DNA of 54,848 nucleotides, the filler included, from Circinaria calcarea (Eukaryota): NCBI GenBank assembly GCA_051942165.1. It is 5 parts of 5 records of this genome, joined end to end, with 100 filler letters (N's around TTAATTAATTAA, not from the genome) between each part and the next. Parts side by side here need not be neighbours in the genome. Positions count along the whole stretch, not along the records: positions 11,002 to 21,894 come from JAVECS010000745.1; 4 more parts are not named here. One strand, given 5' to 3'. The position numbers and the translations under genes were made by a program. Below the pieces are notes generated by a model. It did not search any database and was not told where the DNA came from. It worked only from the letters and a program-made list of their open reading frames with translations. Positions 5,884 to 41,129 of this stretch are shown here, one piece after another. Within the stretch, counting starts at the first letter, position 1. Every line of letters starts with the position of its first letter.

Positions 5884-8800
5884 ATGGTGGAAGAGTCTTT
5901 GCAGGCTGGAAAGTCTTTGAGCTTAATGTATGCCTAACAACTCTATTTCTCTCTGGTAACGCTTAAGCTGATCTCGTTGCAGACCCGTTGGTCTGAAAGA
6001 AGCAGCGCTCGACTCTCCTACCTTCCGGGCTACTATACTTCACTTTACAGAGCAAGTCGACGCTGTGGAAAAGTGGCTTGAGGGTTATATCAAAGCTATT
6101 GCTAAACTTTCCCACGAAGTCTCCGCTTTGGAAAACCTGGTGAATGGCTTCCTTATTGCTGCCACACCTCCAGCGTATCTCTCCGAAGCCATTATAGATC
6201 ATGACTATACACTACTGGCGATTAAGAGCTATGGCGAAGGTGCGAAAGATTTTTGGAACTCTACCATCCTAGGCGTCAAGAAACTCGACTCGTCTATGCT
6301 AGATCCTTTGCGAGTCTTTCTTCAGAGCGAACTTCGAAACTTCAAGGTATGTCGTTACAAAAAACCAACCTGACCTGGGCTAATTAGCTAGGATACACGT
6401 CGTCAGCTTGAGCAATCACAAAAGCAGGTGGACAATCTCCAATCACGGTATGCAGCTCAATCGAAAACCAAGGAGCCTTCCTCTTTGCGTGAAGATGCAT
6501 TTCAGCTTCATGAGGCGCGTAAGGTATATCTCAAAGCTTCTATGGATTTCTGTGTTGCTGCCCCTCAGTTGCGTATGTCATTAGACAAATTACTAGTCAA
6601 AATCTTTTTTGAACGTTCACGGGACATGCGAACCAGTCGTGATAGTACGAGCATAGCCTTCTCAAAGATGTGTACTGATCTTGACCGCATAAGAGGCTGG
6701 AGCCGAGAGATGGAGAATGGTGAAAGAACATTTCGTCGTGAAATACAGGTTGCCCGGAAACAAATCGAGGAATCTGCGGAGAACTCACTTCGACCATCCC
6801 GCGACCTGGAAGACTACTCTGTCACGTCGAATACCTCAATTGGGGCCAAGGGTCCTTCTCTGAGTAACTTACCATCTACGAGGCAGAAACTTATCTCCTC
6901 TGAGAAGCAAGGCTGGCTTAATCTGCGAACAGTTACGGGAAAACCTGCAAGAACAGTATGGCTGCGGCGATGGTTCTTTGTAAAGAACGGTATTTTCGGT
7001 TGGCTTGTGCAAGGGTCCCGCTCTGGTGGAATAGAAGAGAGTGAAAGAATTGGTGTTTTACTTTGCGGCGTCAGACCAGCAGCTCAAGAAGAACGGCGCT
7101 TCTGCTTCGAAGTCAAAACGAAAGATACCACTATAGTTCTCCAAGCCGAATCGCAGCCTGAACTTGCAGATTGGATGAGCGCATTCGATATTGCGAAGAA
7201 AAAGGCTCTAGAAGATCCTACGAGTACAGAATCTCCAATTACTACTACGGGGTCACAAGCATTAGATCCGGCCTTCGCCATCTCGCCGCCAACTGCCCCA
7301 GAATTTGCCGCTAGTGCAGCAGATTCTGGAATGCAGCTTTTATCCGACGATAACGTCAACTCCGCATTCGATCGGAGCACCACACTCCCACTATTAGGCG
7401 GCGAACTCGGTCACCCAGCTACGAGGAGTAGTTTTGATATCAACAGCCATCGACGTTTGACTATGAGCGAGAAAGACGGCGAGAGTGGCCGTGAACAAGC
7501 TGCCAGGATTATCCAAAAATTGGACTTGCATCGCAAGTCAGCCGCCAGTCCTCAGATCGGTTCTGGTGCACTTTCGTCACCGACGACACCAACTGGTCCA
7601 GCTGGAGGAATTGCAAGTCTCATTGCCGCAAGTCATAATGTCATGCCGGTTGGTCCAGGGGCGATGCCGCAGTCTTCGACCGTAGACGTTCAAAGCTCAC
7701 GGTCCGCTGCCGCAAGTACTATACGCAACTTACCATCTAGCACCCTAGCTCCATCGACACTAGCTAATCCTCCCAATCAGACCAACCTAAGTGCTGCAGC
7801 GGTAATAGTGATTGGTGAGCGTGGAATTGGATTAGGTAGAGGAGACATAACAGGTGGAATGCCAAGCGGGATCATGGCCAATTTCTGGGGCACCGCGAAC
7901 TGGGGTTATATGAATAGACTTGAACGTGGTGAACTGAAGCCTGTCCAGGAGGAGAGATTATCGTTGAGTCATCTTAGTCCTTCAGTCCAGACTGGTGAAT
8001 CTTCCTCAAAGAGTGCGGGACTTATCGGCCCAGAGCATCAGCGAAGTAGCTCGCTCCTTGATCAACAGAAAATTTCTTCAAATTTGCGTCAACCGTCACC
8101 TAGCCACCGGAAAACGATCAGTCTCGATGGCGACGCGGCGGAGCTACAAAGAGCACTCATCGCACCACAAGAATTCCCGAATTACTACCCATTGCAGCTT
8201 AAGACTCAGGACGCCCAGTTCCGGCTTCTCTTTCCCAACGTGAAACGGCAAGAGAAAGTCGTCTTAGTTTTCCGAGCTACGTGGAATCCTAATGATCAGC
8301 AGGAGTTTCCTGGTAGGGTGCACGTTACCACTAAAGAGATATACTTTTACAGCAATCATCTTGGTTTAGTATTGATTACTGGCATTGGTTTGGCCAGCAT
8401 CTCCGAAGTCACCGCAGCACCAGGTCGAGATTGTGATTTTCTCTTTCTCCATCTGAAAGGAACAAACGATGAATCAAACTATACGCGCATAACGATTAAA
8501 ACTTTCCTAGAGCCGCTGAAGTTACTTCAACGTCGATTGAACTTCTTGGTACGGAACTGCAACTCTGAAAACCCTTGTGATCTGGAATCTATTATGAAAA
8601 CTTTGATTAAACTTGAGCACGACGATCCAACTAGGAGCCCTAGCTTGGAGAGCTGGGAAGACGGTGCCGGAGTGGCACCTTTAGGACAAAGCTCTTCTTT
8701 ACAACGGAACGCGTCACAGAGAAATGCAAGAGACCTTCGAGCAGCAATCCACATAGACCGGGCTTTGTATGGAGAATCTAGTAAGTTTGATGGCGCTAAG

Positions 8801-10301
8801 GAGGTTACGCGATTCAAGTTACCTGGACAGCCTGTAATCTATGTTCCTCGAGGAATGGCTCAATGTGCAGTAGACAGGCAATTTGACATCAGTCCAAGGG
8901 CGCTGTTTCATATCATGTTCGGTGATAGAAGCGCCGTCTGGCAGCTATTGTACCATGAGCGCCGAGCTCAACACATCAAACAAGGTCCCTGGACGCAGCA
9001 GGATCAAAGTCATCTTCGCCGAACATTCGAATATGGCATCGAGTATCTCGACATGTTCCGTCGTACTCGCCTCGCGGATGTTGTGGACAATCAGATGATT
9101 GATGTCTTGAACGATCACCTGTGTTATGTCGTGACGGACAGGAAAACACCATGGCATTTGCCTTACCACCAGAATTACACCCTCGTTAGCAAGATTGTGA
9201 TTACGCACGTGGCTAAGTCGAAATGTAGATTGGCCATCTACACAAAGGTCGACTGGTCGAGGCTGCCGCCCATTGCGAAGGGCGTCATCGAACAGCGGGC
9301 TCTAGCAGACCTAGCATCCGATGCTTTGGATCTTGCAGATGTCATCAGCGACCAAGTACGTAAGCTTGGCGCTCAAAGCCGCACGAAGAAAGCTATCCAG
9401 ATTTTTGGCTACATAGGTCAACAACAAACGACCACCGAATTTGGCGCCAGCGATACACGAGTCGCGTCACAAGTTCGGCGTACTATGGGTAGGAGGACAC
9501 TAGTACACCTAGTCGTGGAATCCATGGTGTCGCTGATCCAGGATATTGTCACATCAGCTATGCAGTGGGTTGGAGCTATGCTACGCTGGATCTGGAAAAC
9601 CGGCAACGCGAACAGTATCCTGCTACTCCTATTGACTATGAGCATCCTAACCAACGCATTCTTTTCCACCCAACAGACCTCCGAATGGTGGCAGGAGCGT
9701 AAGGCTGGGAATCTTATGAAAAGACTGGGTGTTGGCCCGGACCTGGTCATGAGCAAAGCCATCCACATTTCAGATCTCGACCTCGGTACCTTTGGCAACA
9801 GCACTCTCCAGGGAGATCTGTCAAGTCCATGGTAACAAACCCTCCCCCCGCCAATACTCCTTACCCATCACTAACAAGACATCCCGCGTACACAGCTTCC
9901 ACACATTCACCGCCCTAACCCAACAATCCAACCCTTCCCTCTCTCGTTCTTCCCTCTCCATAAACTCAAACCCAGCATCCCACCGTCTCCGCCGCACCCG
10001 CCACCAACTCGGCACCTACCGCCACGATCTCCTCGTCGCCATGCGCGTCGTCAACAGCATCGAGCGGGAAATGATGCGTGCGGAGTGGGAGGATTGGCTC
10101 CGGGCCGAGAGGGAGAGGTGTAAGCGGATGGAGGAGATCTTGGCGAAGAAGGAGGTTGGGGAGAGGGGGAAAGGGGAGATTGAGGTAGGGGAGAGGATGG
10201 TGGGAGGGAGGGAGAGGGAAACTTTTGAGGCATATTGTGGGAGTTGTTGGGGGAAGGAGGAAGGGGAGTTGGGTTTTGGTAATGATGACGATGGTTTTTG
10301 A
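5884..10301 (+). CDS. SIP3: Sip3/Lam1-family sterol transfer protein (BAR-PH-GRAM-VASt-TM)
   Basis: Exon 1 5884-5927, intron 5928-5982, then PVGLKEAALDSPTFRAT (BAR); KQGWL...WLRRWFFVKNG...RRFCFEV (PH); QQEFPGRVHVT (GRAM); VASt-like region; TM segment; final exon with LGTYRHDLLVAMRVVNSIEREMM. Confidence 0.92.
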
Positions 10302-10901: not shown

Positions 10902-11001
10902 NNNNNNNNNNNNNNNNNNNNNNNNNNNNNNNNNNNNNNNNNNNNTTAATTAATTAANNNNNNNNNNNNNNNNNNNNNNNNNNNNNNNNNNNNNNNNNNN
11001 N
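10902..11001. other. Artificial contig linker N44-TTAATTAATTAA-N44
   Basis: Identical 100-nt spacer occurs four times; the 12-mer gives stops in all six frames. Confidence 0.98.
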
Positions 11002-11424
11002 TTTATCTCCTCACAGGGCCCGTAATCTAAAGAATATTACGAAACATAAAGACCGCGCTGCTGCATATGATTCGCTACGAGAGATACCCGGAATCATAGC
11101 GGGAATGAAAATTAGTACTTCCCATAAAGACTCCGCTTCTAGGTGCGATGAGGTAAGTTAACCTTCCGTTTTGCAGATTTTTCACCTATACTCATTTAAT
11201 TCTAGGAGATTTCCCATTACCTCGTCGAACATATCGAAAAGACCTGGAGTGTCATTTTTCATAATGATAAGGCTGCGATGGCGAAGGTTGATTCTGCAAC
11301 AGTCAGGGCGTTAGAGCTCAAAGCTCCCTGGGCATTTACAGCGGACGCAAAAATTATCCGTAACAAGGTTCTTAGCGGGGAAATTTTCCAAAACTTCATA
11401 GACCAAGAGCGCGAAAGAATTCTA

Positions 11425-11512
11425 CGGAAATATGCAATTTTGACCCCCTCAACTTTGAAATATGCAAAATCCACCCCCAAGTTGCAATTTTGACCCCACC
11501 CCCAAATTTTTA
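11425..11512 (+). repeat. Left TIR of MITE
   Basis: cggaaatatgcaattttgaccccctc...ccaaattttta; exact reverse complement of 11776-11863. Confidence 0.95.
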
Positions 11513-11775
11513 ATGATGACCTTCTGTTAATGGAAGGTCGCTGTCACTGTCGCAGAGTCACTGTCGTAGAATCACTGTCGCAGAGTCACTGTCGCCAGTG
11601 GCATTGTGATAATAACATTGCGACACACTGGCATTGCGACACACTTGCATTGCGATACAGTGGCATTACGTTACAGTGCGACAGCGACAGCGATCCATTG
11701 AAAACAGCGACAGTGCAGGCCTGGTTCTTGGGCTAATACCCTCCTAACAATAGTGTGTTCTTCGAGGTCAATCAC

Positions 11776-11863
11776 TAAAAATTTGGGGGTGGGGTCAAAA
11801 TTGCAACTTGGGGGTGGATTTTGCATATTTCAAAGTTGAGGGGGTCAAAATTGCATATTTCCG
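11776..11863 (-). repeat. Right TIR of MITE
   Basis: Exact reverse complement of 11425-11512. Confidence 0.95.
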
Positions 11864-14031
11864 AGAATTCTAACCAAATTATTAGACTTTAGGCGACTAA
11901 TGCCCTCCCTAATTACTTTTCATAAAGACGTTGCTCTCCTCTATGCCATCTCGGACTGCCTCAAGTGGCTGGTATCCATAGGTTCCCGTGATACCCTGCG
12001 GACGGCCATCGAGGGAATATATACAGGAGTAAACCAGATAAAAGGCTTGATCTTGATACAGGAAACAGAATCAAGACTAACTCCTATGCCAGCTGGCTCA
12101 AGTGACATCAAAAATCTAGGGTACCGAACACTTTGCGCGTATGCTCTACGACACCACCGTGAAATCCCCCAAAAGCCAAGTGGGAGAATAGTTCTAGCGA
12201 AGCCACCGGCCGCAATAAATACCAAAGCTCTTCGCAACATGGCCGATCTTGCTTATCAATTGGGATTTGAGTCCCCTGAAATAGAAGCCTTGAGGCAGTA
12301 TTCCAAGGATGAGAGCGAAATCGGGTTAGCGGAACCTCAGCAGCCACTTCTCGTAACGGATGATTGCGAGATAACGTCAAATGAAAGATGTGGTATACCG
12401 CTTACTTCCACTTATGAAGAAGACCGTAAGTATTTGTTCCTTCGCCATCTTCATGATGGAAGAGAGGAGCAAGGCAAGCAGATCACCTCTATGTTCCGCC
12501 TGAGATGTTGGTACTTGAGCTTTTTCGGCGTGCCAGAGCAAGACGATGCTGTCCAGGCAATGATCAGTTGCAGGTCGACAGCTACATCAAATATCAATAT
12601 GGTTTCGTCACCGCCATCGAGACAACCCACTGGGGACGAGCCTTCGAGAGACACACCGATGCAAGATATCCCGGAGCAGCTACAACAATATTTATCTGCA
12701 CAGAATAATGAAGCCCAAGAACATCTTCGACAGCTTGAGTCAGAGAAACTGGCGTTGGAGAGCCGAAGGCGAGAACAGGAGAACACCCGCTGAAAGCTTG
12801 TTGAGGATCAAAGCAAACTAGAGGGAAAAGAACAAGAAATAAACCGGCAGCGGCATATCCTTGAAGAACAGATTCGGCGTCATGCCCATAGCAGTGAAGC
12901 CCTGGCGAGAAGTGCAGCTTTACTTAAAGAACAGGAGGAAGCCCAATTTCAAAAACAACTAAAGCTTGAACAGGATGCTAATTCAATCCAAGCCAGAGAG
13001 CACGAACAAAAACAGAGACTGTCTGAGCTTAATAAATCAGGACGGAAGATACTCTTGAAACAGAATACAGTTCAACAACAAGAAGAAGAACTGAAAACTA
13101 AAGAGTTTGAATTGGAGAGAATAGACGAGATGCAATCAGAGCGGATAGCGAAACTCAAATGGGATTTGGACAAAATCAGAAGACTAGAACAGCAATTGAA
13201 AATGGCGGAGGAATTTCCTATTAGCAGGGAACAAGAATTAGAAGACCAACGAAAAATCGATCAAGCTGAGCTAGAGGAAATCCAGGCGACCGACGATAAA
13301 GACACAATAGATGAGAACACGGGTCCTGACCTTTAACTAGATATTCCGCCGCTGACGCAAGGGTATCCAGCGCGTGACTACAACACAGAGCAATGCCCAA
13401 CAGCAGAGTATCCAGCACAAGTAGGACGGTCACGCAAGCGCCGGGATGAGAGCGACGAGAGTGATTCCGAAAGGGCCGACCTACTTAAGGGGAGAAAGGC
13501 AACAGGGTCGGGCAAATATCAAAAGCTAGATATGGATTTGAACTCCAGAGCAGAGGAAAACGCTATGGATTCTATTAAGCCTAATATATAGCCGAGAACA
13601 AGTCCTAGCAAGTAATAGGCAAACGTAATTTATTGAGGGGGACATGTAACATGCTCAAGAGACGATTCCGCGTTCTAGTCGACCTCGGCAAGTGTTTTTA
13701 TAAATGAGGAGGAAGCCAAGCTTCCTCCGATCGTGGACGTTGGTGAAATATCTAGACTACTCATTCTATCCATAACGATTGATTTTATGGTTTGGAATGG
13801 CCTTGAAGAAATTACACCTTCGGGCTAGAAATACGAAGGATGCTTGTAAAATGTGCGTATATAATAAATAAGACCTATTAGTTTTATGTTTAACTTATAG
13901 TATACCGAATAAAGATACTTTATTACGAAGTCCTTTAGGGGAGCCATTTCTAGATGTCATTAGTTGGGGAGCCGATTCTGGCTGTCACCTTTTAAGCAGC
14001 CATATATAGATGCCTCTATTGGTAGTCAACC

Positions 14032-14321
14032 TTAATTGGCGTTTCCACCTGTATTCCGTGTATTATTCCTCCACGGCTTGCCTAATTGGCGGCGGCGTGT
14101 GAGCGGCGGCGGAGGCTTTGAAGCATGCCCAGTAGTGGTGGCGAAGGCAGCGGCATGTTGGTGTTGGCGTATATGGGCGAATAGGCGGTTTTTGGAAGCG
14201 AAATGGCCGTGGCATGTACGGCATGCGTAGAAAGTTGAATTGGAGGTCGATTTCGCAGCCGAATCGGAAGCCGAAATGGGCGTATTCTTGCTGGTATTCG
14301 TGACCGGGTTGCCGTGTGTTC
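14032..14321 (-). pseudogene. C-terminal fragment of an ORF with a C2H2 zinc finger, fused out of frame to the copia integrase
   Basis: Alternative frame reads THGNPVTNTSKNTPISASDSAAKSTSNSTFYACRTCHGHFASKNRLFAHIRQHQH...GGNAN-TAA (14032-14034): C-x2-C-x12-H-x3/5-H. Confidence 0.6.
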
Positions 14322-16926
14322 AGTATGCGGGGACTTCCAATTGAATCGTTTCGTTGGTACCCTATTCAGAAGATGTGCGGCAGCAAGGTAGCACTCTGGA
14401 TACAGATCTTCAGGTAAGTGCGCAGTAATACGGATCGATCTGGCCACTTGCGATAGCATGCTGCCAGTACGTTCAGACGCACCGTTCTGTTCCTTGGTGT
14501 CATTTGCTGACCATTCGTACGTAAGCCCTTGGTTCTGTACGAATCTCTGTATCTCATTGCCGACGGATGTCTCCTGGTCCTGTCGAATAACCTGAACGGC
14601 GAATCTGGACTCGAAACCTTGTCGATCGCAGTGGTTGATAATGTGTTTCATAACACGCGAAAGGGTTTCTTGCTTGTGGTCAGGTAGCGGAAACACCCAA
14701 TGATTGCTGGTACATTCGTCGTAGAAGTGTGCAATGCATGTTGTTCCATCCCATGCCACTCCGAGGATAATCAGGTCCATGCAGAGGCGTTCGAAAGGTC
14801 TGGTTGCACGCAGTGACGGTGTCTTCGAGACGAACTGGTGCATCTTGAACGTAGCACACGTCTGGCATTGGACCGTCTTCGGGGCATCTTTTCCTTCTAG
14901 CAGTTCAATCTCACCGCTTTTAGCCAACTGCTTAATCACCTCCGGTTGACAATGACCTAGGCGTTGATGGAAGATCCACGGTGTTGCTTTTGGCACTGAG
15001 CCAGCAGTTCTCGGACCGACATAATTGGCGTAGACTGCGACATGTCCAATGGGGTTGTATTCGACGACAGGCATTCCAATATGCTCATCGACTTCGAATA
15101 CCGGTCTACCTTTGTAGGTGACCTTATCAATCGCCATATCCCAATGAAATCCTTCTCTTTTCAGCTTCATGCCTGCAATCAACGTGCAGTTCGCCTTCGG
15201 GGCGTAAGCTGTATTGGGGAATTTCAGGTCCACACGCTTGCCGTTTAGATGACCTTTCACCAGCATTGTTCCACGTCCTTCAATCAATAGCTCTCCTCCC
15301 GGGCTACTTACCCATTCGAATTCGGGTCGAATGTCGTCAATGAAACGACTGGAGTCCCAGGTGAGGTGGTAAGTGGAACAAGGATCGTATTGAACGCTAT
15401 TTTTCAAGAGATTCTCGCGCCTGTCTGGCGACGAACTATCCGACAGCGCCGAGCTGTTAGGCTGAGCCATAGCCATACTAGCAAAAGACCACGACCCGTT
15501 GCCTTCACGCTCTGCATACGCTGAATTGGCTGAAGCAGATAACTCCACAGCGTTGTCCTTATTATTTTCTCTTGACTTTGACCTCCCTCCTGACCTCCTG
15601 TCTTCGAAAGAGATACCATCGAGGATATCGGTGTTGCAGAACTTCTTGATTGAAAAATAGAATCTTACGTCCTTCTTAATTACCTCTCGAATAGCCTTTC
15701 GTTCACTGGGGACGCTCTTCCATCCAGAGCGTCTGGCATTCATGTTGAGGTAAGGATCTTCTTCGAATAGGTGGACTTGACCGCACACGCATTGCTTATT
15801 TCTGTAAGACTCGCGTCGATCAGTCTGACCTTTCTGGTTGTTCGATTGAGAGTTGTTGTTTTGTGGCTGTTGAACGCCTTGCCATGTTGCGGCGTTTGCA
15901 CTAGCTCCCTTCGACTTCGATTTAGCCATGAATTAGTCGACACTATTGCGATATTCTCTTGTCGTCTCTCTGAACTCGAGTTCCTTGCCTGCGGCGACTT
16001 TTTCTCGAGCCCAATGATCACAAAAGTCAGGTGCAAAAGGCCTTCCTGACCTCAAGAAGTGCTCTGTAAAAAGCTCCTCGTTGTATGTGGTGTCGATGTT
16101 CATGTAGGCCATTTCATCACGAAGTGACTCCCATTCCTGAATCCACTGTTCGGGTATTCCTTTCACCGGGTTGGAATTCTTTAGTTGTCCATATTTGACG
16201 TCGATCTGCTTGCGTAGCTTGCTGTCTGACTGCTTGAACTTTTCTGCCAGAGAGATTATAATGTCTCGAACAGAGGCTGTTCTCTTAGTCATTGGCACAT
16301 ACTCGCGAGCTGATTCCATAACGGCTGCATGAACTTTTGCAACTCCTGAGGTCGCGGCTTTAGACTCGGCAAACAGACTTTTATATGCTCTCTCCTTGAT
16401 TGCATACGACTTCCTGTGGTTCGTCGAGGTCGTCATAGTCGGCACACCGTGTTCTCACTGGGACAGCAGCACCAGGTTGAACAACGTCCCTGTAGTAGTC
16501 GGTGACTCGAGGATACTTCGGTGCCGTTGGGGCTACCTCAGTTCCTTCTGGGTCAACGTACTCCCATACTTCGTGTTGTAGTGCGAAGCCTTTGATATCT
16601 TCAATCCATTGACGGTAATTATTTGGCGTCAGCGCGGTCACCGTCACTCTCGTGGTGGCGATGTACGTGTCTTCCATCTCGTTATCAACTGGTGGCAGTC
16701 ACTCTGGTGGCTGGCTTCCTGCTGTAAGATGAAGGATAGATCGAATTTCAATAGGAACTTTTCGCTGGAAGAAATCTCTTCGCTTCAATTCAACGATTTG
16801 GCGTAGTGAATCAATCGTAGCTTCAAATAAATGCTGAAACGATAATATTTCACCCCCCATCATCGAGGTCGCGTTCACCATCGGAGTCGCCAAGCTGCGG
16901 CAAGTCCACCATTAAAGTCGTAACCT
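14321..16926 (-). mobile_element. Degenerate Ty1/copia LTR retrotransposon internal fragment (gag-PR-IN; RT/RNaseH and LTRs absent)
   Basis: Gag N-terminus LTPNNYRQW...VWEYVDP; knuckle-like CVCGQVH; protease-like QYDPCSTYH; GAG-pre-integrase FHQRLGH...CQTC; DDE integrase (MDL, RQDQE, NGASER); HLLNRVPTKRFNWKSP, then homology ends. Frameshift near 16415 and in-frame TAA at 15933-15935. Left boundary is approximate. Confidence 0.9.
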
Positions 16927-17070
16927 CGCCATGATATCAATTACGCATTTTAGTGTGATACTAGCTCCGGAATCTAAATTCTCCGAACTTCCGCTAGCTG
17001 TTGGTCTGCCCACGGGCAGAGCACAATTACTAATAGAACGACTTCAACCAATTATTAATATCTTTTACCT

Positions 17071-19933
17071 ATGGAGTCAACTATCCAGCAGGTACTCCTA
17101 TCCCCTCTCTTTTACTTACCACGGCTTAACTCTCAACAGGTATTCGAAGGGCTTCGTGAGCACATAGGATCTGTGATTCTATCATTGACAATACACTCCC
17201 CGGAGGATGAGGACTTATTTCGTAAAGAAATATCCACACTCCATAGCTTTATTGGTGGCCTAAGCACGCGCGACTGCGAAACATGTTCAGCTTCCTCATC
17301 TCAATCAAGCGGTCTCACGATATCCTGTCCAAATATTCCCATTGCGGGAGGCGCTAGCTCCCCACCACGCCAACAGCAACTTATCCTTCCTTCTGCTAAT
17401 ACGACTAACGCGAATCACTCTACTGATAATCCACCGCATCATATTATCAACCCGTCAGTCGACAGCCAAATACTTAGCAATGAACGGATACGCCAAGAGC
17501 GTCTTCCACCGCCTGCTGATAGTTCAAAGGAGCTTGAAAGTACTTCGCCCAGCCAGAACGGATCGCAGCCTTCCCCGCTCCCGGTCCACCAACCTCAGCT
17601 CAACCAGTTACCGGCTCCTCCGCGTTCACTCTCAGTTCCCCCGCCTTCTCAGCCTTTCCAGCTCCCAGTCCACCGGCCTCAGCTCAATCAGCTGTCGGCT
17701 CCTCCGCGTTCAGTCTCAGTCCCCCCCATTTCTCAGCTTCTAGTATCACAATCAAGAACTACTCGCCTTCAGTCTGATCGCGCGGATGTTGAACCTCGCA
17801 TACGCTACGAACTTCAAGATGGGGTGTTATGTTTCTTTCCTACACGTGAACAATGGCTCGATTTTCCAAGGATCTTAGACTGTGCTCGACAGCTAGGCGT
17901 GGAAGGAGTCGGCGCTTGCAAAGTAGTCTTACCATCAGATGTCATTGGTCCATCAAAGCCAGTTCGCTATACAAAGAAGACTGGGTTTTACTACTCAGCG
18001 CGCCTTCAGGACAATGGGACTTATAGCCTTCGAAGAACCGAAAGAAATGCTGGAAAGCAGCCCAGTATTAGCTCAGAGAGTATACCGACCAGTAAAACAG
18101 CGGCGCAGCACTTCGAAGAGCTTATCGGAACGAGATCGGGTCTAGCTAGTGCTTGTTATTGTGTTGATATGGATGCTGAAAAGCCAGACGATCGAGAAAG
18201 CTTTGGCCTTCCTATGTCTCCGATATGGCCTCTTAAAGGGGATCATCTCCCTAGGACAATAGACCATATACCCGGAATCCACGGCCCTTTTGTCTACGAA
18301 GCTCTTCGTGGGTTCGCACCATTTGCCATGCACGTAGAAAATGCGGATCTCTACTCGGTTAATTATCTTTGGGATGGAGAGAAACATTGGACTGTGATAC
18401 CGGAAGACTCGCGCGGTGCTTTAGAAGCGAAATCCAGAGAGACTAATAACTCTTATTATTCCGGGAAATGCGCGCAGTTTTTACAACACTCTGCAACCTA
18501 CTACCCTAGCTCTATACTACAAGACTGGGGAATAAGTTATCATCCCATTCAACAAAAAGCAGGCGAAGCCGTTATCACCTTCCCTGGTGTTTACCATCAA
18601 GGTTTCAGCAATGGACCAAACTTTGCGGAAGCTGTTAACTATGCTGATGAAAATTGGAGCATCAATAACCATCGTGGTTGTAATTTGGAAACCTGCCCCC
18701 CCGGATCTATCACCAACGATATGCTCGTGTTTCAAGAGAAAACAATGGAACAAATCTCCGAGGATAATGTCGTTGATGAGGCCTCCGAGGAAAATGCCAA
18801 TAGTGAAGAACAAAATATTCTACCCAAGAGGAAAAGAGCTCAGTGTAGTCACGGCAAAAACTCTGCAAAGGAGAAGATGCGGAAGGTTTCCCAAAACAAG
18901 CCAGGAAGAGATGCGTTATCGTTTGGTGTCGCTCAAGCTAAGGCCGTCGATGCAAGGTTCAACAAAAAGATAGAGGAATTCTTTCGGGATGATGTATCCA
19001 CTCATTTCCAAAACCTGACACCAATTCCAAAGGACATGAAACAACCCACGGATATTTACCTAGTCTTTGCTCGGAGATGTCCCGACGCGCTTCCAAGTAG
19101 GGTTGGCCTTCTTACACGTTTATTTTTTGCTGTTGGTAGCCCGGATGCGTTCTATCAACTACATGATGCTTGCAGAGCTAGCCGTCAGGGCAGAATATCC
19201 GACATACTTCAGCCGGCAAATGATATTTCTCAGATAATACAGGCCCTCGACCGAGTGGAAACCACTCTCTTCGTTGCATCGATCTTGCGGCGTTTCTACC
19301 TTTCGATCCTGGTAGATAAACGTCATCAATTAGAGGAACTTTACCAAAGACAGAGGCCTAGGCGACCCAGAGGCTCAGTTGAGTACGGAATTATGAATCT
19401 AAAACAGATAGCAGCATCCGAACGCTCCAGTGTCAAGGCTCTGGACGAGATGATGAAAGAAGCTTATCCTGAAATCAAGCCGACAAGACCGCATAGATCA
19501 TCCAGAGAAGACGCTTATATGAAAAGCCTTTCTTCTTTGAGAACCAGACTTCGTCATGGGAGCAACTGGTACACGATGGAGCAGATGATACCAGGAGCCC
19601 TTGCTTTGATACCTACTGCTAGCGACTACGGTATTCAAAACCGCGAGTAAGTTGCCTCGCAAATATTGTATATGTAAATGATTAAAATAAATTAGCATTG
19701 AAAAGCTGCCTCAGAATTTATTTTCGATCTTTTTAGACGTTCTGGTCGAGTTCCGTGGAGGTTTCCTCCGCGATATCTGTCAGTCAATATCTCAATGGAT
19801 ATTTGCTATTTTACAGTCAAAAGACCCAAGTCAAACATATATATTCGAAAAATTGGATGGAGATCAGCTGAAGAGAGAGCCTTTTAATTCTAGGAATTTT
19901 ATAGATTACTGCAAACTAGATTCTTCTATCTGA
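17071..19933 (+). CDS. JmjN-JmjC (KDM4/Rph1-like) histone demethylase with uncharacterised C-terminal helical domain
   Basis: JmjN-like FFPTREQWLDF...GACKVVLP; JmjC IPGIHGPFVY...FAMHVENADLYSVNYL.DGEKHW...CAQFLQH...QKAGEAVITFPGVYHQGFSNGPNFAEAVNYA. Predicted intron 19647-19695; last exon ends TGA 19931-19933. Confidence 0.9.
17566..17733 (+). repeat. Two 84-nt in-frame tandem copies (QP..LPVH.PQLNQL.APPRS.SVPP)
   Basis: Direct duplication visible at DNA and protein level inside the JmjC gene N-terminus. Confidence 0.85.
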
Positions 19934-20199
19934 TGGCACGCTAAATGACTGCCATCCTATATAGATGTGGTGGAGACTAGAAAGGTTGCAGAGGAAATAT
20001 AATTGTATGCTATTAAAACTAATGGGTTGTTTAGAAATAACTGACTAATTATTGCTAGAGTTAGTAACCAAAATAAATGCATGTGTTCGCACAGCTAAAT
20101 CCATCGCGAAATGTTTCTGAAAGAACGACGGTATTGAAATAACTACACCTGCTAGGTGGCGCGCGCCCTTGCTTTCCGGCTTTGGTTGGAAGCGAAGCC

Positions 20200-21107
20200 T
20201 AAGCTGCTGCTGCTGCTGGAGTTAATGCTTGGCGCAAGTCCGAAGCTGTAGTCGATTCCCTGTCTGGTGATGCAGAAGACGATCTTGAAGAAGGAGATGG
20301 TTCATCCTCCTCAGATGCCACTAGCCAGGGCATGTCTACCTTATCTTTATCTGTGAGCTGCTTCTTATTGTGTGGGTGTATTCCCTTCGATTAATAAGCT
20401 TGCACGGCTGTATCAAGCTTCGAGCGCTGCAACCATCTTTTGCAGCTTTGCTCCCCTTTTCACTGACCCATTTATCGTCGTTGTGGTTTTTAAGTACTGA
20501 GGTTGAGATCCAGAGTTCCTCTTCCTTGCCTGTTTCCTCATCAATCTTTCTTTGCAACGACAAGGTAATATCTTATCTGTTCGAGTTTATTTATTTTTCC
20601 TTCGGGCCTCGCGACCTGGACAACGTCTTTTATTGCCTTGATATCTTTGGCAGTCCGGATGACCTTGTTCTCTTTGTCGTCTGTTGCTTTGGGGAACGCT
20701 TCTTCTTCCAACCATGCTTTAGCAACTCCCTTCCCAAACTTTGAACCGGGATAAATTTCATGAATCGGGCACTTATCGGTTCCACGATTTACAAAAACTC
20801 AATCCCCCTTTTCGCCAATCGGCTGGATGGCAATGATGACTTGGCCGAAGGGTGTTCGCCCATTAGACATATCTTCCACTTCTACTTTAATTGGCTCTAA
20901 ATCTGGCAAGTCTTCACTCTCTATCAATGGAATGACAGTCTCACTGGTCGTTGCTGGTGATGAGTCGCCTGCTCCACGAGAGGGATCCGGCGACGGGATA
21001 ATCCATGTCTCGGGGTAGCCATGCCACTTTAGAAACGCAATCATTTGATTATTATAGCCCTCGAGTGCTTGCTTTGCGGTTGTATCTTGCGGGTTACTTT
21101 CCAGTTT
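20200..21107 (-). pseudogene. Degenerate uncharacterised accessory gene
   Basis: Joined frames: KLESNPQDTTAKQALEGYNNQMIAFLKWHGYPETWII...GRTPFGQVIIAIQPIGEKGD*VFVNRGTDKCPIHEIYPGSKFGKG...IRYYLVV /fs/ EELWISTSVL /fs/ GIHPHNKKQLTDKDKVDMPWL. One stop and about two frameshifts; boundaries approximate. Confidence 0.6.
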
Positions 21108-21894
21108 TTACTAGTAAATTATTATGGTACGGTTATCCTAGCTAGTGCCTCTCCCTAATCCTTGCGGAGATCGCCAAAAAAAAAACCCCCCCCGCTCAAA
21201 AAGCGCCCATCATTTTGCAACACACTATATTTGATCCCCTTAGAATGTATTACAGTTGATTACGCTCCTCGACCTGCTGCGTGGAAAGCGAATACGAAAC
21301 CTCGTGGATTTATCAGGTCTTTCTCCATAAGGAGTATGCCTATGAAGGTACACAGGATGCTATAGAGGACGGTGCATCGGATGATAAGCTTTTGGGACTG
21401 TAAACAGTTCGAATTCCGGACAACTATCTGCTTGCCACTACCACAGTCCAATATAAACTCGGGAGAATCTTGGAGTAGTCCCTACTCGCTATTCTTAACC
21501 TTAGTGGGTCGTACGAGAAGTACGACCCGGCCGGGAATAATTAGAGGTCGAACATTATACAAGTCAAACTCTCTCCTTTTATTGGACGTTGGTGGTCCGA
21601 AAATTCCTGGTGGATATTGTATCTAATTATCACTTTTATCTTATTTTGGTCTCCGCAATAACTATACCGGCGTTATATTTACACGTCGGTACCGCCTATA
21701 AATCATTATTCTCTTTGGCATCCTGCTCTTCTCGCCGTGCACGTACCTCAGAGCCAGTACGAAGATTGGGGGCTCAGCAAGGCTCGCAAGGCCACATGAC
21801 CTCCTTCTGCCGTCAACGGGGTGGGGGTTGGGAAAGGGAGTTGCGACAGTAGGAGAGAGAGCAGCGTGGGCAGGTTGGCGACATGACATTGGGG

Positions 21895-21994
21895 NNNNNN
21901 NNNNNNNNNNNNNNNNNNNNNNNNNNNNNNNNNNNNNNTTAATTAATTAANNNNNNNNNNNNNNNNNNNNNNNNNNNNNNNNNNNNNNNNNNNN
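21895..21994. other. Artificial contig linker
   Basis: N44-TTAATTAATTAA-N44. Confidence 0.98.
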
Positions 21995-23748: not shown

Positions 23749-24284
23749 TGTTACTGGCTTGAAAAAGGTGGACCAAAATCACGGTTGAAGAGGAGGACAA
23801 TAAATATAGTTAAGAAGGAGGACTATTATTAGGGCAAAAGAGGAGGACCACAAATACCGCAGAAAGGGAGGATTACGAAAACGGCAAGCAAGGAGGAAAG
23901 TTTATCAAAGCTTATACCACTAATGGTGCAGAAGCAAAGCTATATGGGTTTTATTCTAGGTATGGCGTTGTTCTTTTCTTAAGTAGGCTATCCCCGATAG
24001 AAAGTCGCCGAGAAAAGGTGCTCCTTGTGATTGAATGTTATGATTATGGCCAAGTGACATAATTTCCTTGAATATTATTGGGTTGTTTAGACATTATCTG
24101 AGAAAGAAGGCGTAACCGATTCCGAAATTAAGCGCAACTTCCGTAACAGTATATTTCCCGTCCAGCCGCGCAATTATCAACGCCCACTCAAACGACGCAC
24201 CGCATCGCAAAATTCTCTTGATCAGTCAAATTAACCCAAGTTCATTGTTATACTCTTTAATTACTACTGTTCGATCATCCCATC

Positions 24285-34455: not shown

Positions 34456-37400
34456 CTATGGCAACTCGGCAATCGCGGGGGTAAAGGACGTATCCCACAA
34501 CTCAAAGCGTACCGTCCTGCGATGACTCTCGAGTCCGGCATCAGGGCTCGGCCCATTGGTAAGCTGCTCCTGGATTTGTTCGAGTATCTGAGGGTCCGAG
34601 TCACCCACCAGATAATCCCGCTGTGAGTACCGCGAGATGGTGTCTGCTCTCTGCAGCATCAGAGTCTCCGAGGGCGCGGTCCATGACTTGCGGGTTTTTT
34701 GACTGGGTGTACGACCGGCCCACCGACTGGAGCCGCCGCTGATGAATGGACGTTTATCTGGACGAAGTGAACCGGTTAGTAAATGCATGTGTGAGGATTG
34801 GAGAGGAGTTCCCTACGAATTCTAGATTCTTTCTGTAAAAGCACCCTTGGAAATCCACTGATGAGATACTGCTCGTTGGCGGTGAGAGCGAGAAAGATTT
34901 CAGACGCAACGTGTTTGTTGTATAGCGTCACTGTTACGGGACCCATGTTGAACTTATAGTTCTGGATCATTTGGTCCAACGTCTCTGGTGTGATAAAAAC
35001 CTGCTGTGCAGCAACTTCACAATACTTTTCTTGGATGATAAAACACGGAATATGCCGAAGACCCTGTGAGCCTTTGAGGAAGAGGCCGAGCTCCTTGATA
35101 GCCATCGAGCCCTGGGGTATCCGACAGTGTATAGTACCTGTTATAGATTAGTAACGTACTGCTTATTGCTAGTACAGTCAGTTTTAAAGTTAACTGACCT
35201 TGATATTGGGTGTATCCGTTGGAAAGAGATGTTATTTTTCCGGTGCTTTCATAATAAAAGCTGCTGGCAACAAGCTGACGAGCCACTTCCGGAATCTGTG
35301 TATCGTTCATCATCAATTCTCGGACGTCACGTTGAAAAGACTCCATAGCAGGTACATTATCCAGAGCTGGCGGATCGTATTTTAGAGATGGATTGAGACG
35401 TCTATACCTATGACGGTGGGGCTCTGATGGCAAGAGTATATTCATATAATCTGTCCACGCCTTCTCCGAGTCCAAGCTTGACTCGATATGGTCAACGGCA
35501 ATTTTGTAAAGCTCTCGGAAATTCGAAACGACCCCTTGGCGACGTATTACTCCCTTAGCCGCGGTCGCCCTCGAACGGCGTACTGTTGAGCAGTGGCCTG
35601 TTCCTATAGACAGTATGATATCAGGGTGAGGATCCTCCATACCCGGTGGCTCGGCCCAAATGAGCTTCCGCTCTCGGTCTGCAATCTGAATAGGGTTGTT
35701 ATGGTAGATACCACCATCTGTGTAAACTTGTTTTGAGGGCTCGTGAGCAAAACTCTTGAAGATTTGTGGAGCTGCAGAGGTCGCTCTCGCCCTACTTTAG
35801 AATTAACATAAATTAAATACTCCATAGATAATTGACTCCTTACGCTTCCCATATCCTCAATTCAGTATCCGGTCTTTCTGGCCTCTGAAAGACATACGGA
35901 ACTAACGGGTGGTCAGAACTGGTATGCTCTATTAACTTATGTAACCCGATACGTACTTTTGTCTTCGCAGGTTCTATTATAGTTTGATAAAACAACCACC
36001 GATCCGGCTGAAGAGGTTGCGGTCACTGCCACCTTCACTTCGGAACCCTCGATTCTGGGGCCTCCAAAGAGATAGCCATCCCGACCGAAAGCATCCATTA
36101 GCGCGTTCTGGAGAGGCTGTGTTTCATACCGAGAATGATGATGGTTTTCAATCAACCACCCAATTCCAGGTATATTACCACCATGGCGGCGGGTAAAAGC
36201 GGTTTCACACAAATCCTCAAAATTCTGCTTGCATTCTTCGACGGACCAGCTCTTCGCGGCAAGGCCGAGGGCAATAATTCCACCAGTGCTATTTTGGATG
36301 TATTAGACTTGTATAATATATGTAGAGGAATTTCCCAGTCGGCTTACCTTGTTCCTATTATCAAATCAAAAAAGCTTATGATTGGTAATTTCCCTCCCAA
36401 TGCATGCTCTATCTGCCGCAATATCTCCAATTCTGCTATTCCTCTAATTCCACCCCTAAAGCACCAGTCAGTAGACCCGGTCACAGCTATTGAATTGTTT
36501 ATAAATTTCCAAAAATGAACTGGACTGACCCATCAAGCGTAAGAACTCGAACTCCCGCCGACAGGGGCTTTAGCTGGACTAGCCATGGAAAACCTCCCAC
36601 GCCTCTCGTAGGATGTAATGGGCAAGCATAGATCTCTATCGAGACTTTTCCTCGATGAACGCCATATGCCTTTAGGCAGGGAGTGCATAGAAGGTGTCCA
36701 CATGGTAGCGAATGCTCAGGTGAGGCAACCAAGCAAGAGAAACATGCCGAGTGACTGTTGAACTTCTCTGCGCCTCCCACATGTTCATAGAACCTAGTTA
36801 GGACAATATCTTTATGTATCTTGGCCGCGACTTGATCTTCTAAGTCGCTGTCAAGGGTCCCCATCCGAAGTTTTTCGAGTAGCTGCACAAGATGGTAGTA
36901 AGTCTTATCCCGGAATTCATCCTGGAATGATTCGAACGAAAAGCGCGACTGGTATTCGCCAACTGCTAGGACTTTACCATTCTCGAGCTGGTGGCCTTTG
37001 GTCCCATGACCACTGCGGACGTTTACACAACGTGCACCACCACCTGGCCTGATATATTCACATGGCCAATGTCGATCACAGAAATTTTCCAACGCTACAT
37101 CGAGATGATCAACATATTCTGGAAATATGCTTTCCGCAGTACCTATATCTCGTTACAACTGCACCGGATAAGATTCTCTCAGGTGAATACCTCGTATTTT
37201 GCGCCGGGCTGAATCTAACATAATACAGGATGCGATCATGTAACTGAGCTCACCAAAAATGCGCGGTCCATCCAACTTATTCTTCCATGCATGCATTATA
37301 GTGATAGCTAACTTGAGTATATTACCACCGAAGTCAAGTGGAATAGGACTGTTAAACAAAGAAGCTTGAACAAAATCGAAGGGGGTATCAAGTGTACCAG

Positions 37401-39431
37401 AGAAGTGATCGAATGCGTATTGGAGATATGGTTGAAATTCCTCAACATTTAGCAGCATCCGAAGGTTGCGTTTACTCTGCCTAGATGCATCGCACGCTAT
37501 CTGGATTTCGGCATATAACTTCGATATCTGATTGCTGATCAATTGGGGTCTTCCATTCGTTGGGATGCGTACGACCCGAATGCTGGAGTAATAGGATAGT
37601 AGTAACTCCTTAACAGACTCTATGCGCTTCGCGCGTTTTCGCCAGAACTCCGCGTAGTCGTTGAATGTTTTGTTCTTGCGAAGAATGGATTGGACTGGTT
37701 CCATAAGCCACGAAGTCGCATGATCCACGTCCCATTGCATCGAGTCTATATTATTCTCCGATGCATTGCAAGCAATTATGGCATGCGGGAGTACGGGCTG
37801 ATTCGAGGACGTCTCCAACGCCTTAGCCGCCCACTCTATCAGTTTTTCAAGCACACTTTCAAAGGTCCTCAAGTAGGGTCAGCCTTAAAGGGTGTGACCT
37901 GGAATCTTCTTACTTACCTAGGGTTCTTCAACACAAACACAATGACATCTGAGAATGTATATAGTAAGCGAGGATATAGATGCATCACGGCGTATTGTCT
38001 GCTTCGCTTCTTCGCAGTATCAGCCCATATAATCTCTCTTTCCGACGTGTGGTGGAGTCTGCGAAGGCGCTTCTCAAAAGATCGCGTACGCTGTGCCGCT
38101 GCAATGCTGCTGGGTTGCTTCTCATTTTTTCTAGATCTGGCACCTATTGGCTCCCTCTCCCCACCATCGAGCCCTTCGCAATCGGCGTACATCAACGGAT
38201 GGTCAGAGAAGAACGTCTGTGGATCAGCGTAAAGGTGGACGTCTCCTGATGTGGGAATGTTTTGATGCTGTGCCGAGCCAACAACTGGGGTTGGAAAAGA
38301 TTCCTCATGTAGATTTCTAAGCTGATTCATATCATTAGGCTTGAATATTACAGGGATTCGGGTTTCCGCCTCAGCTTACGTCGACAAGCCCCTTGATAAG
38401 GGTACTCTTTCCAGCTCCTGCAGTACGGGTCAGACCATAAGTATATTCTTGCAGCGGGAAATGTATAGACGAACCAGTCTGGCCAACAAAAGATACCAGA
38501 CTTGGAAAACGCGTCTGCTGTGCTCCCTTCTTCCAATCCCCAGGAGTCTCCGCCATGAGCCTAGCATATCTTCCGTAATCCTGAAAGATGTAATCGTCTA
38601 CTTCATCTCTAGCCACGCCAAACCAAGTTGTGCTTTCATCTTCTTCGTGTAGTTTCTGGTGTTTGGCATCATTCATAGTTGGCTCCAAGATAGCTCTGAT
38701 TTTTTCTGCAATGGTGTGATCTGTCTTTTCGTGGGGAACTCCTCCGGGCCCTAATTTTCCCTTTCGATGAGGGGGAACCATATCCCAACATTTGCCACAG
38801 AAAGATGTATCGCAGACATTGCAGTACAGTTCCCCGGAACCTGGTCGGACGCACATCTCACATAGCTGCTCTTCAGGTTGATGCTGACCGTGCTTGTCAC
38901 GAATCGAAGGACTGCTGGTTAGGAACTCGTTAGCAGCGCTTGCTAACTTCTAAATCACAATCTAAACTCACTCTTCGGTTGTACAGCCATCCAGCGTAGA
39001 ATAGTCATCAATGTCTAGTAGGCTGACAGCATGCCTTAGACCCTTATCGCCAACATATCCCCTGCAAAGAAACCTTAGCCGGCGTACATCTCTAGCAACC
39101 TCTCGAAGTGTCTGTACCTGGTATTGGGAGAAGAATCAAGCTCGTTTTTAGTTGAAGAACTCTTGGACGATAATTGTTGCGGAACCCATGAATATGCCTG
39201 CCCTTGTCAGTCTGGATGCAATCTCAACTTGGACTATGCTACCTTAGGATATGGCGAAGCATCTGGAGTTAATGATATGAGAGGCTCTTCCCACTCGCTC
39301 AGTCCTCCATAAGGATTTAGACCCCTGGAAGGACTGGAGTTTCTGGAGGCTTGCGCTGAAGTAAACAAGCTCTGCTGATCCTGAGACTGGGTCCGGTGGC
39401 CTCCTGGAGGTTTAAGACTGCTTTCATGCAT
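34456..39431 (-). CDS. Multi-exon B-box + P-loop GTPase + RING-like + patatin-like phospholipase protein
   Basis: YCNVCDTSFCGKCWDMVPPH (B-box); VSFVGQTG/AGKSTLIK and ADCEG (GTPase); CFSCL...LPCGHLLCTPC...CPLH (RING-like); VLTLDG/GGIRG, FDLIIGT/STGG, DGG (patatin); C-terminal AELP. Start codon uncertain. Confidence 0.85.
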
Positions 39432-39999: not shown

Positions 40000-41129
40000 T
40001 CATAGTCTAGCCTTTTCCTTGACAAACTCGACCTTGTTTGTGCACGTCCCTATTCCTTCAAGTCCTACTTCCACGACGTCTCCATGCTTGAGCCAGAGTT
40101 GTGGAGTCCTTCCCATACCGACTCCTTCTGGCCTGTCAAGAGACCTCATTAGCTTCTCAATCAAGAACCACACAAATAAAAGAAGACAAGGACATATACT
40201 CACGTTCCCGTGAAAATCAGGTCTCCTGGTAGCAAGGTAGTTCCCCGACTCAAGAATGCAATTGTGTCCCTGACCCCAAAGATCATATCCTTTGTCTCAC
40301 TCTCCTGCACCATCTCTCCGTTCAGCTTCGTACTAATTCTCAATGCCTGTGGGTCTCTGATTAAATCCGTGCTCGCGATCCCGGGACCATACGGCGCCCA
40401 GCCATCAAAGCCTTTGCCTAACGCCCATTGACCCCCTCCGCGCTTGAGCTGCCACTCTCGATGTGAGATGTCATTACCGACTGCATAGCCAAGCACATAG
40501 TCAAGGGCGGAGGACGCAGGTACATTTAGGGCGGGACGCCCGATTATCGCGACAAGCTCGCATTCGTAGTCGAGACCTGGGGCTTCTTGCGCGGGCAGGG
40601 GAACTGGAATGGGAGAAGTTGGGCCGGTGAGCGAGGTGATGGGTTTATAGAAGAGGATGGGGTATTTGGGAATGGGCATGCCAGACTAGATGGAGAGAGG
40701 GCAACATTAGCGAATATTGTTTAGGGGATTATTAGGGTTAGGTACCTCCTTGGCATGATTTTCATAGTTGAGCCCGAGGCACCGCACTGTTTTCACATCT
40801 GAAGCGGCAAGAGGGGCAAGAAGGGTTTTGACGTCCTAAATGAATGTGTAAGGACTACTTAGTGTAATAAGATCTAGGGGCATCTCCGTCGGGAAATCAC
40901 CTACAGCAACCTGATCCGTAACATTGTGCTTCCCAAAGATATCTCCATTGATTATACGGGCCTGCGTAGTCTTTGCAATATCGCTCACTCCTGAGGGGAG
41001 GATAGCATCACCGTAGTACGTCCTCCCGTCCTTCGCGAGGAAACGAACCAAGCGCTATAACTCGACGTCAGCGATATCATCGGCCAAGTAACCTAGAGAA
41101 TCAAAGGACCTTACAGAGAAAGTAGGCAT
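40000..41129 (-). CDS. Fumarylacetoacetate hydrolase-family protein
   Basis: MPTFS / RLVRFLAKDG...; VRCLGLNYENHAKE; PILFYKP; LDYECEL; GNDISHREWQ; GKGFDGWAPYGP; PGDLIFTGT / PEGVG. Confidence 0.92.

Follow-up and report, generated by a model that had tools for sequence, protein, structure and literature searches.

The stretch of DNA treated here, called the window below, is 54,848 nt of the Circinaria calcarea assembly GCA_051942165.1. It consists of five parts of five records joined together, with 100-letter N filler between them; parts standing side by side need not be neighbours in the genome, and positions 11,002-21,894 come from JAVECS010000745.1. All coordinates count along the whole window. 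At 17071-19933 on the plus strand lies a gene for a JmjN/JmjC protein whose catalytic core resembles that of the KDM4 histone demethylases, and residue numbers refer to this protein, starting from the ATG at 17071. An earlier note on this DNA had proposed that the gene is carried by a Starship-type giant mobile element and guards the element against silencing. What kind of enzyme does the gene encode, and to what kind of DNA does it belong? In the following, homologous proteins are labelled P0001 and so on, metagenome loci L001 and so on, and X1 and X2 stand for a DNA run and an RNA run, respectively.

Gene model and transcript

The gene is made of exon 1, an intron and exon 2 (Table 1). A stop-to-stop open reading frame (ORF) extends over 17059-19650 on the plus strand and is translated from the ATG at 17071 into 859 codons. 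This long exon and all the motifs quoted in the earlier note are present in the translation, with the Fe, 2-oxoglutarate (2OG) and Zn residues conserved. A GTAAGT donor begins at 19647 and overlaps the stop at 19648, the acceptor AG is located at 19694-19695, and the end coordinate 19933 given before turns out to be the stop of the second exon, reached by a splice seen in an RNA contig. The tail encoded by exon 2 has homologues in the gene models of P0003 and P0008, which read through their introns, and this exon is covered by an RNA contig over 19696-19806. A GenBank hypothetical protein from a metagenome-assembled genome of Circinaria calcarea is identical to the window protein in 837 of 837 residues. 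At the other end of the gene, comparison of this GenBank entry, P0059, with the window sequence makes a 5′ intron at 17092-17139 a plausible candidate; this segment is in frame and stop-free, so that it can also be read through, and the RNA contigs begin only at 17164. No second copy or repeat of the JmjC gene was found within the window.

Evidence for expression comes from two studies of biocrust communities, in which the share of sampled words was 0.60 for X1 and 0.44 for X2. The RNA contigs of X2 span 17164-19806 and differ from the window by 1-4% (about 98% identity), and one of them carries the exact splice 19646|19696. Therefore, the gene is transcribed and spliced, which is what the earlier note had wished to see checked. 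No RNA contigs were found over 20.0-21.8 kb, and this is not a sign of silencing. The DNA contigs of X1 break with unlike sequence at 17070-17075, beside the start codon; this break, together with two deletions in the same run that are taken up below, may reflect alleles that are dead, or another arrangement upstream of the gene, in a relative of about 98% identity. Depth of the X1 contigs is about 25-30 over DUF3723 and 16.5-17.2 kb versus about 9.7 over JmjC, which, contig depths not being copy numbers, is only a hint of multi-copy debris around a single-copy JmjC gene.

Table 1. Coordinates of the JmjN/JmjC gene, its parts and the neighbouring features in the window
Feature	Position	Strand	Evidence and remarks
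PH/VASt-domain gene, left core flank	6392..9835	+	Pfam
DUF3723 pseudogene	11206..13336	+	11206-11490 (profile 180-254) and 11840-12790 (profile 250-400), in different frames
Copia-type fragment	14082..16698	-	gag, protease, pre-integrase, integrase core
Exon 1	17071..19646	+	ORF/translation; unspliced, 859 codons up to the stop at 19648-19650
Possible 5′ intron, 48 nt	17092..17139	+	GTACTC...AACAG; implied by GenBank model P0059 (MESTIQQ|VFEG)
Two 84-nt tandem copies (82% identical)	17563..17730	+	encode a Pro/Gln-rich N-terminal tail, poorly conserved in the family
Catalytic core as modelled: JmjN, linker, JmjC barrel, Zn loop	17788..18795 (residues 240-575)	+	AlphaFold2 (AF2), predicted local distance difference test score (pLDDT) 84.2, predicted template modelling score (pTM) 0.85
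JmjN-like segment VLCFFPTREQWLDFPRILDCARQLGVEGVGACKVVLPSD	17812..17940 (residues 248-290)	+	phmmer 3.9 bits to KDM4D JmjN; family profile; high-confidence part of the AF2 model
Pfam JmjC domain	18322..18642 (residues 418-524)	+	PF02373, E 2.4e-22, 80 bits
KRKR in basic linker	18826..18837 (residues 586-589)	+	direct reading of the sequence
All-helical C-terminal domain, family-specific	18988..19646 (residues 640-859)	+	PF28402 tag on homologues; AF2 pLDDT 75.3, nine helices
Intron, 49 nt, GT..AG	19647..19695	+	X2 RNA contig joins 19646 to 19696; X1 DNA contig unspliced
Exon 2	19696..19933	+	78 codons and a split codon, stop 19931-19933; conserved tail LFLDVLVEFRGGFL
Decayed homologue of the 441-aa ORF of the L001 unit	20316..21104	-	tblastn 28.7% over 286 aa, E 3.5e-19
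Patatin-like/RING/B-box gene	35017..38949	-	in-frame stop where two ORFs meet at 37152/37153; change of frame
FAA-hydrolase gene, right core flank	40003..40685	-	Pfam; followed by Aa_trans, RPN1, RIO2

Catalytic core and protein family

As far as can be predicted from the sequence, the active site is complete and all metal and cofactor ligands are kept. The translation contains the motifs FAMHVEN (H421, E423), SVNY (N431), GEKHW (K438) and YHQGF (H509), and the Zn-site motifs CAQFLQH (C467, H473) and GCNLETC (C537, C542); the parts of these residues in binding Fe, 2OG and Zn we take to be those of the KDM4A residues to which the alignments with KDM4 assign them. An alignment of 17 family members shows no variation at H421, K438, H509, Y363, D366, C467, C537 and C542 and at least 90% conservation at E423, N431 and H473; both the HxE...H triad for Fe(II) and the Tyr/Asn/Lys contacts to 2OG align to those of KDM4D. 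A further motif, AEAVNYA, is akin to AEAINFA of KDM4D. Among the Zn residues, the C-x5-H spacing fits KDM4 and the second Cys pair is spaced C-x4-C.

Presence of both JmjN and JmjC, as had been claimed, is borne out: JmjC is recognised by Pfam, and JmjN by the family profile, by the AF2 model and by its detection in a homologue. When a profile of the 17 family members was compared with the PDB, it aligned to KDM4D with E 2.8e-44 across chain residues 30-327, including the JmjN segment and the Tyr-x-x-Asp ahead of the barrel, followed by KDM4A (about 3e-43), Rph1 (1.4e-35) and KDM5C (2e-30). With the single sequence, KDM4D/C/A/B (1e-24 to 6e-21) rank first among solved structures, ahead of Rph1 (3e-20) and then of JMJ13, KDM5 and JMJ14. 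The core model matches full KDM4 cores in Foldseek, those of KDM4A/D at E of about 3e-19 with a template modelling score of 0.62-0.71 over about 300-328 columns and about 23-26% identity, and the best 50 matches are all KDM4 cores, the KDM4-like entry 2w2i among them. In the homologue P0086, JmjN passes the Pfam threshold (29.3 vs 26 bits).

Thus, KDM4/JMJD2 proteins (KDM4A-D, Rph1) are the best matches of the window protein in sequence, profile and fold, and they share with it the JmjN-JmjC-Zn core fold, the HxE...H triad, the Tyr/Asn/Lys contacts to 2OG and the Cys/His/Cys/Cys set of putative Zn residues. Unlike canonical KDM4, however, the protein has a helical C-domain of its own in place of PHD/Tudor (animals) or C2H2 (Rph1/Gis1), only about 23-26% identity in the core, a JmjN below the Pfam threshold, a C-x4-C Zn loop, and a position in a separate clade of a quick tree. 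PHD, Tudor, ARID, zf-C5HC2 and C2H2 domains were found neither in the window protein nor in 143 representatives of its relatives (E<=1e-4 / 1e-5). The C-domain seems, from its model, to have a fold without known structural match, since none of 48,161 chains reached Z>=5 in a fold search and the best Z was 4.8, with short helical overlaps only. Between core and C-domain, the linker is basic throughout the family in the alignment, and its KRKR is likely a nuclear localisation signal judging from the residues themselves.

How large is the family to which this protein belongs? A word-indexed search returned 57 proteins, 21 of which are close family members (E<=4e-41, 29-98% identity), and the remaining 36 are of KDM5/JMJ14 type (E>=1e-13). 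PF28402 is found on all 21 close members, in 19 together with PF02373 and in two alone, so that the KDM4-like core and the conserved helical C-domain, both covered by the alignment, go together in the family; phmmer with the C-domain alone matches 85 of 224 proteins. With an exhaustive phmmer search, the number of representatives was 3450 at E<=1e-3, 1598 at 1e-10 and 112 at 1e-30. Among the 143 top representatives, JmjC was detected in 119, JmjN in four, a JmjC-SET fusion in five and a kinase-JmjC fusion in one. In the five SET fusions (P0135, P0158, P0163, P0203 and P0205) the SET domain is C-terminal, which puts an eraser and a writer in one protein; P0140 is the protein kinase fused to JmjC, and P0099 consists of 15 tandem JmjC stretches in 1604 aa. 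The ESM Atlas gave only generic JmjC clusters of animals and algae and was uninformative on taxonomy.

Rows that look like canonical KDM4 (Pfam JmjC 126-150 bits, JmjN in two of three) first appear near E 1e-25. A quick IQ-TREE run on 125 JmjC segments, which is unrooted and contains neither taxon labels nor a named fungal KDM4, omitted P0002, P0011 and P0099, nearly identical members of clusters, rows without coverage and the majority of the KDM5-type rows. In this tree, the three canonical KDM4-type rows join KDM5/JMJ14 with a value of 98 in the SH-like approximate likelihood ratio test (SH-aLRT), and the window protein stands in a separate clade of 16 rows (SH-aLRT 96). The quick unrooted tree therefore places the protein outside the KDM4 clade and gives no orthology to Rph1-KdmA; domain make-up, Pfam scores and tree agree with the opinion of the earlier note that the protein is too divergent to be the core KdmA. 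Taken by their sequences, these proteins form a large, little-known fungal radiation of stand-alone JmjN/JmjC proteins, apart from canonical KDM4/Rph1 and from KDM5. The family appears to be under moderate purifying selection, since the ratio of nonsynonymous to synonymous substitution rates (dN/dS) of usable family pairs is 0.22 (570 codons), 0.43 (454) and 0.32 (161); a further pair, touched by hypermutation, has 0.36, and other pairs, including those with the window gene, are identical or saturated.

The island and a hypermutated unit elsewhere

Pfam assignments on ORFs delimit an island of about 30 kb between housekeeping genes, with Kri1 and the PH/VASt gene in the left flank and an RRM protein among the genes of the right flank. 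Within the island, the DUF3723 pieces (E 2.8e-41 and 3.4e-20) are followed by a coiled-coil ORF up to 13336. A pair of 93-nt inverted repeats (11425-11517 and 11771-11863; 99% complementary, 253 nt apart) lies exactly at the frame break of DUF3723 and could be the scar of an inversion or else a small insertion able to form a hairpin. The N runs at 10902-11001, 21895-21994, 32888-32987 and 43878-43977, which are paired 44-nt runs at a regular spacing of about 10,993 nt, are masks rather than assembly gaps, and one of them conceals part of the 5′ region of DUF3723. The copia fragment lacks reverse transcriptase, and no pair of long terminal repeats was found within the window. The gene at 20.3-21.1 kb is in one frame with in-frame stops, by which its ORFs are split at 20799-20801 and 20541-20543. 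In the patatin-like gene, three Pfam pieces remain below threshold (21-24 bits, with Patatin hits of 21.7 and 21.2 bits, vs a cut-off of 27.7), and RING and B-box are weak. The earlier note had described every neighbour as broken; this holds for DUF3723, copia and the gene at 20.3-21.1 kb, but ORFs of 327-637 aa at 22.7-32.3 kb are open.

Two of these open ORFs deserve a description. The one at 24261-25922 (553 aa) belongs to an orphan family with eight hits, which include another protein of Circinaria calcarea (76%, along a quarter of the length) and one of Xylographa pallens (37%), and from these sequences it would be a lichen-lineage multi-copy gene. The other, 637 aa at 28088-30001 on the minus strand, is of low complexity (Gly/Ala/Pro-type, 56-60% GC), is rich in short tandem repeats (periods 9-24 nt and 21/39 nt) and is without match in Pfam. 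Inverted repeats of 76 nt (26291-26366 and 27641-27716; 89%, 1274 nt apart) enclose no ORF with a Pfam hit and may belong to a non-autonomous DNA transposon.

Is the island a Starship? DUF3723, FreB, NLR and patatin-like genes are frequent passengers of Starships (PMC10104507), and a preprint (10.1101/2025.11.25.690456) describes a lichen Starship, Tangerine, with DUF3723, PLP and NLR genes; the accessible portion of the main text of that preprint does not contain the words JmjC, jumonji or demethylase. DUF3723 and patatin-like genes occur together in the island as in these elements, and are the two Starship-typical auxiliary families present in it, although genes of both families also occur outside Starships; NLR and FRE were not found in the window. 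In contrast to Starships, the DUF3723 gene is a pseudogene, no ends can be defined, and no DUF3435 captain was found by Pfam among 79 ORFs of the window, a negative that is bound to the 54.8-kb window and its recognisable ORFs and is compatible with a captain lying beyond or decayed. The 79 ORFs comprise 23 of at least 150 aa from the whole window and 56 non-nested ones of at least 75 aa from 9.8-41.7 kb. Long terminal or inverted repeats bracketing the island are absent from the window, short terminal inverted repeats of 10-12 bp being indistinguishable from chance unless an empty site is at hand, and repeat-mutation indices gave no signal in the window. Thus, carriage by a Starship as put forward earlier is not demonstrated by the window, and calling the island Starship-type DNA retains DUF3723 in its favour while resting on one pseudogene and a sub-threshold patatin-like gene.

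The surroundings of homologous genes give another view of this problem. A scan of metagenomes yielded 29 loci, and when 101 ORFs of the window were compared with them by tblastn, five ORFs matched: JmjC (28 loci), its antisense shadow (16), the ORF at 20.8-21.1 kb (2) and pieces of the patatin-like gene (7 and 6). The ORFs of the housekeeping flanks have no match in the 29 loci, and core synteny is therefore not shared within ±10 kb. According to Pfam on 49 ORFs of ten loci, the neighbours of homologues include DnaJ, DUF7924, patatin-like, multicopper oxidase, DUF6606, kinase, dynamin, collagen-like, APH, BTB and GH18 genes. Neither DUF3723 nor DUF3435 was found within ±10 kb of homologues, in these 49 ORFs or in 26 ORFs of L001. 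Of eight distinct neighbourhoods of homologues, six lack a patatin-like gene and contain genes of ordinary appearance.

What we find here as new is a JmjC homologue within a multi-copy, hypermutated unit of more than 22 kb. The homologue in L001 is 45% identical to the window protein and sits in the middle of the unit; all 21.9 kb of L001 recurs in 16 further loci with 86-100% identity, several assemblies having at least two copies (the 17 loci are L001-L007, L010, L011, L014, L017-L019, L023-L025 and L027). Differences between copies are almost only C>T/G>A (transition/transversion ratio 8-96), one-way and even over the locus. They focus on 5′-NCC-3′, and in L010 as many as 564 of 662 TCC sites are mutated (up to 85%). 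This context differs from the CpA of classical repeat-induced point mutation and may be a distinct repeat-targeted deaminase signature; L004 has CpA changes in addition. The JmjC frame is free of stops in five of the 17 copies, while the other 12 carry 6-25 stops; in L004, the hypermutated part starts just downstream of the intact JmjC gene. Truncated copies of the unit are capped by a shared sequence of about 100-170 nt (L023 3285-3398 and 15064-15234; L027 786-966; L019 11646-11750), which is probably the end of another repeat inserted into decayed copies.

In the L001 unit, the 441-aa ORF is upstream of JmjC and the patatin-like gene is tail-to-tail with it, and these three genes recur in the window island, where only JmjC is open. 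Because of the shared genes and the hypermutated copies, carriage of family members by giant repeats is plausible from a comparison of these loci. On this basis, one may suppose that the window gene is Starship-type cargo or an auxiliary gene, removing H3K9me3 from its element and so keeping the genes of the element, and perhaps its mobility, active. One-way C>T hypermutation is a mark of repeat-targeted genome defence; a 45%-identical relative in 17 loci, 12 of them ruined in this manner, the three genes in common and the two auxiliary families of the island all accord with such cargo. Furthermore, Pyricularia Starship families differ in H3K9me3 cover and one seemingly avoids heterochromatin, with no mechanism given in the accessible text (10.64898/2026.01.28.702382). 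On the other hand, a captain is missing from the window and from the homologue loci scanned, as are terminal repeats and repeat-mutation marks from the window, the neighbourhoods of most homologues are ordinary, and the unit extends past the ends of the scanned contigs, so that it might be a segmental duplication. In the literature, no match was obtained for Starship with JmjC in a full-text search, that for Starship cargo with demethylase met only a sterol demethylase in a reference list, and searches for transposon-borne JmjC in fungi returned nothing. We regard such element-borne anti-silencing as unlikely, if by no means negligible. Much the same doubt attaches to a broader version, in which the JmjN/JmjC family as a whole would be an unrecognised passenger of giant units that travels with the patatin-like gene and acts as an element-encoded eraser of H3K9 methylation.

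The ordinary neighbours lead to a different proposal, namely that the gene is a lineage-specific paralogue with a regulatory role in the host, unconnected with mobile DNA. It would open facultative heterochromatin at host genes, such as condition-specific or secondary-metabolite genes, and merely happen to lie in a gene-poor interval prone to transposons. Housekeeping genes on both flanks, presence of a single gene in the window and its expression in nature would be expected in this case; most homologues are beside ordinary accessory genes (multicopper oxidase, kinases, GH18, BTB, dynamin), and the fusions with SET (five of 143) and with protein kinase (one of 143) resemble proteins of host chromatin or of signalling. 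A host regulator, however, would explain neither why JmjC is repeatedly linked, in two distant lineages, to both the 441-aa ORF and the patatin-like gene nor why a homologue resides in a multi-copy hypermutated unit, and no candidate target genes have come up. It seems quite improbable to us.

The tail-to-tail linkage with the patatin-like/RING/B-box gene, being conserved, could also be taken to mean that the protein is a JmjC hydroxylase or demethylase of non-histone substrates, partnered with the patatin-like/RING protein in a module of conflict or immunity type. Other homologues beside a dynamin-like GTPase, a kinase or BTB, and a C-domain without match to a chromatin-reader fold, go along with this. 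Yet the whole KDM4 core, residues of the methyl-lysine pocket included, aligns to histone demethylases, the basic KRKR linker suggests nuclear residence, and the patatin-like partner carries a stop in the window while JmjC is kept. Hence, there is very little chance that this is the case.

A probable accessory demethylase and its possible role

We consider it fairly probable, and the best explanation of the data, that the gene in the window is accessory, intact and expressed, that it encodes a nuclear Fe(II)/2OG lysine demethylase with the KDM4 core fold, and that selection has kept it while its linked neighbours decayed. In such an enzyme, Fe(II) would be held by H421, E423 and H509, 2OG by Y363, N431 and K438, and the structural Zn by C467, H473, C537 and C542. 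An N-methyl group of methyl-lysine would be hydroxylated and then released as formaldehyde. Given the KDM4 fold and a KDM4D-like Ala-Val at the positions that tune the methyl state, H3K9me3/me2, and perhaps K36me, would be the likeliest substrate. The KRKR linker would direct the protein to the nucleus and the helical C-domain would supply targeting, in a setting that may be described as a lineage-specific island in which transposon debris is mixed with orphan genes in several copies and with a patatin-like gene linked to JmjC.

Several points weigh against this explanation. Enzymatic function and substrate are predicted from sequence and model alone, and accessory status was judged from the window and the homologues rather than from the genome-wide complement of KDM4. 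Pfam gives no JmjN in the window protein at E<=1; the second Zn pair of KDM4 is C-x-C, from which C-x4-C in the Zn loop departs; and the tree comes from a quick search, unrooted and with unlabelled taxa. The RNA contigs are from a relative of about 98% identity in a community sample, from which neither level nor strand can be derived, and, as an RNA library may contain DNA, firm evidence is limited to the spliced contig. DNA contigs of X1 lack 4 nt at 17384 and 22 nt at 18249, and neither deletion occurs in the RNA contigs. Close relatives may thus have dead copies, and the gene may be dispensable at least in some of them. Finally, dN/dS of 0.2-0.4 means weak constraint and was obtained from other family members rather than from the window gene. 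The earlier statement that the gene is still under selection is accordingly left with two sides: the gene is intact, its family shows values of 0.22-0.43 and it is the sole open one of the three shared genes, but the constraint is weak.

Fungi silence mobile and accessory DNA by H3K9me3, and an anti-silencing role of the window gene is a reasonable idea, though a speculative one. The idea that a JmjC protein limits H3K9me heterochromatin at or near repeats is familiar from Epe1 of fission yeast and DMM-1 of Neurospora, which are host JmjC factors of another subclass, recruited by HP1 and not known to have a JmjN/KDM4 core. Another parallel is provided by TET/JBP dioxygenases, which are carried by KDZ transposons in basidiomycetes and proposed to act on epigenetic marks: they too are lineage-specifically expanded 2OG-dioxygenases tied to large mobile DNA. 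They differ in belonging to another branch of the superfamily, in acting on DNA bases instead of protein lysines and in the class of transposon.

Against this background, a widespread family of erasers with the KDM4 fold would be a concrete candidate for keeping giant elements or accessory islands open: it is catalytically complete by sequence, its member in the window is expressed and intact amid decay, and a relative resides in a hypermutated unit. If this is true, an eraser borne by the element would explain how some giant elements escape from heterochromatin even as surplus copies are ruined by repeat-targeted C>T hypermutation. Even on a more ordinary reading, we are left with a large uncharacterised fungal radiation of JmjN/JmjC proteins, JmjC-SET fusions among them, with a C-domain that seems to have no known fold, and with an unusual signature of hypermutation directed to 5′-CC.

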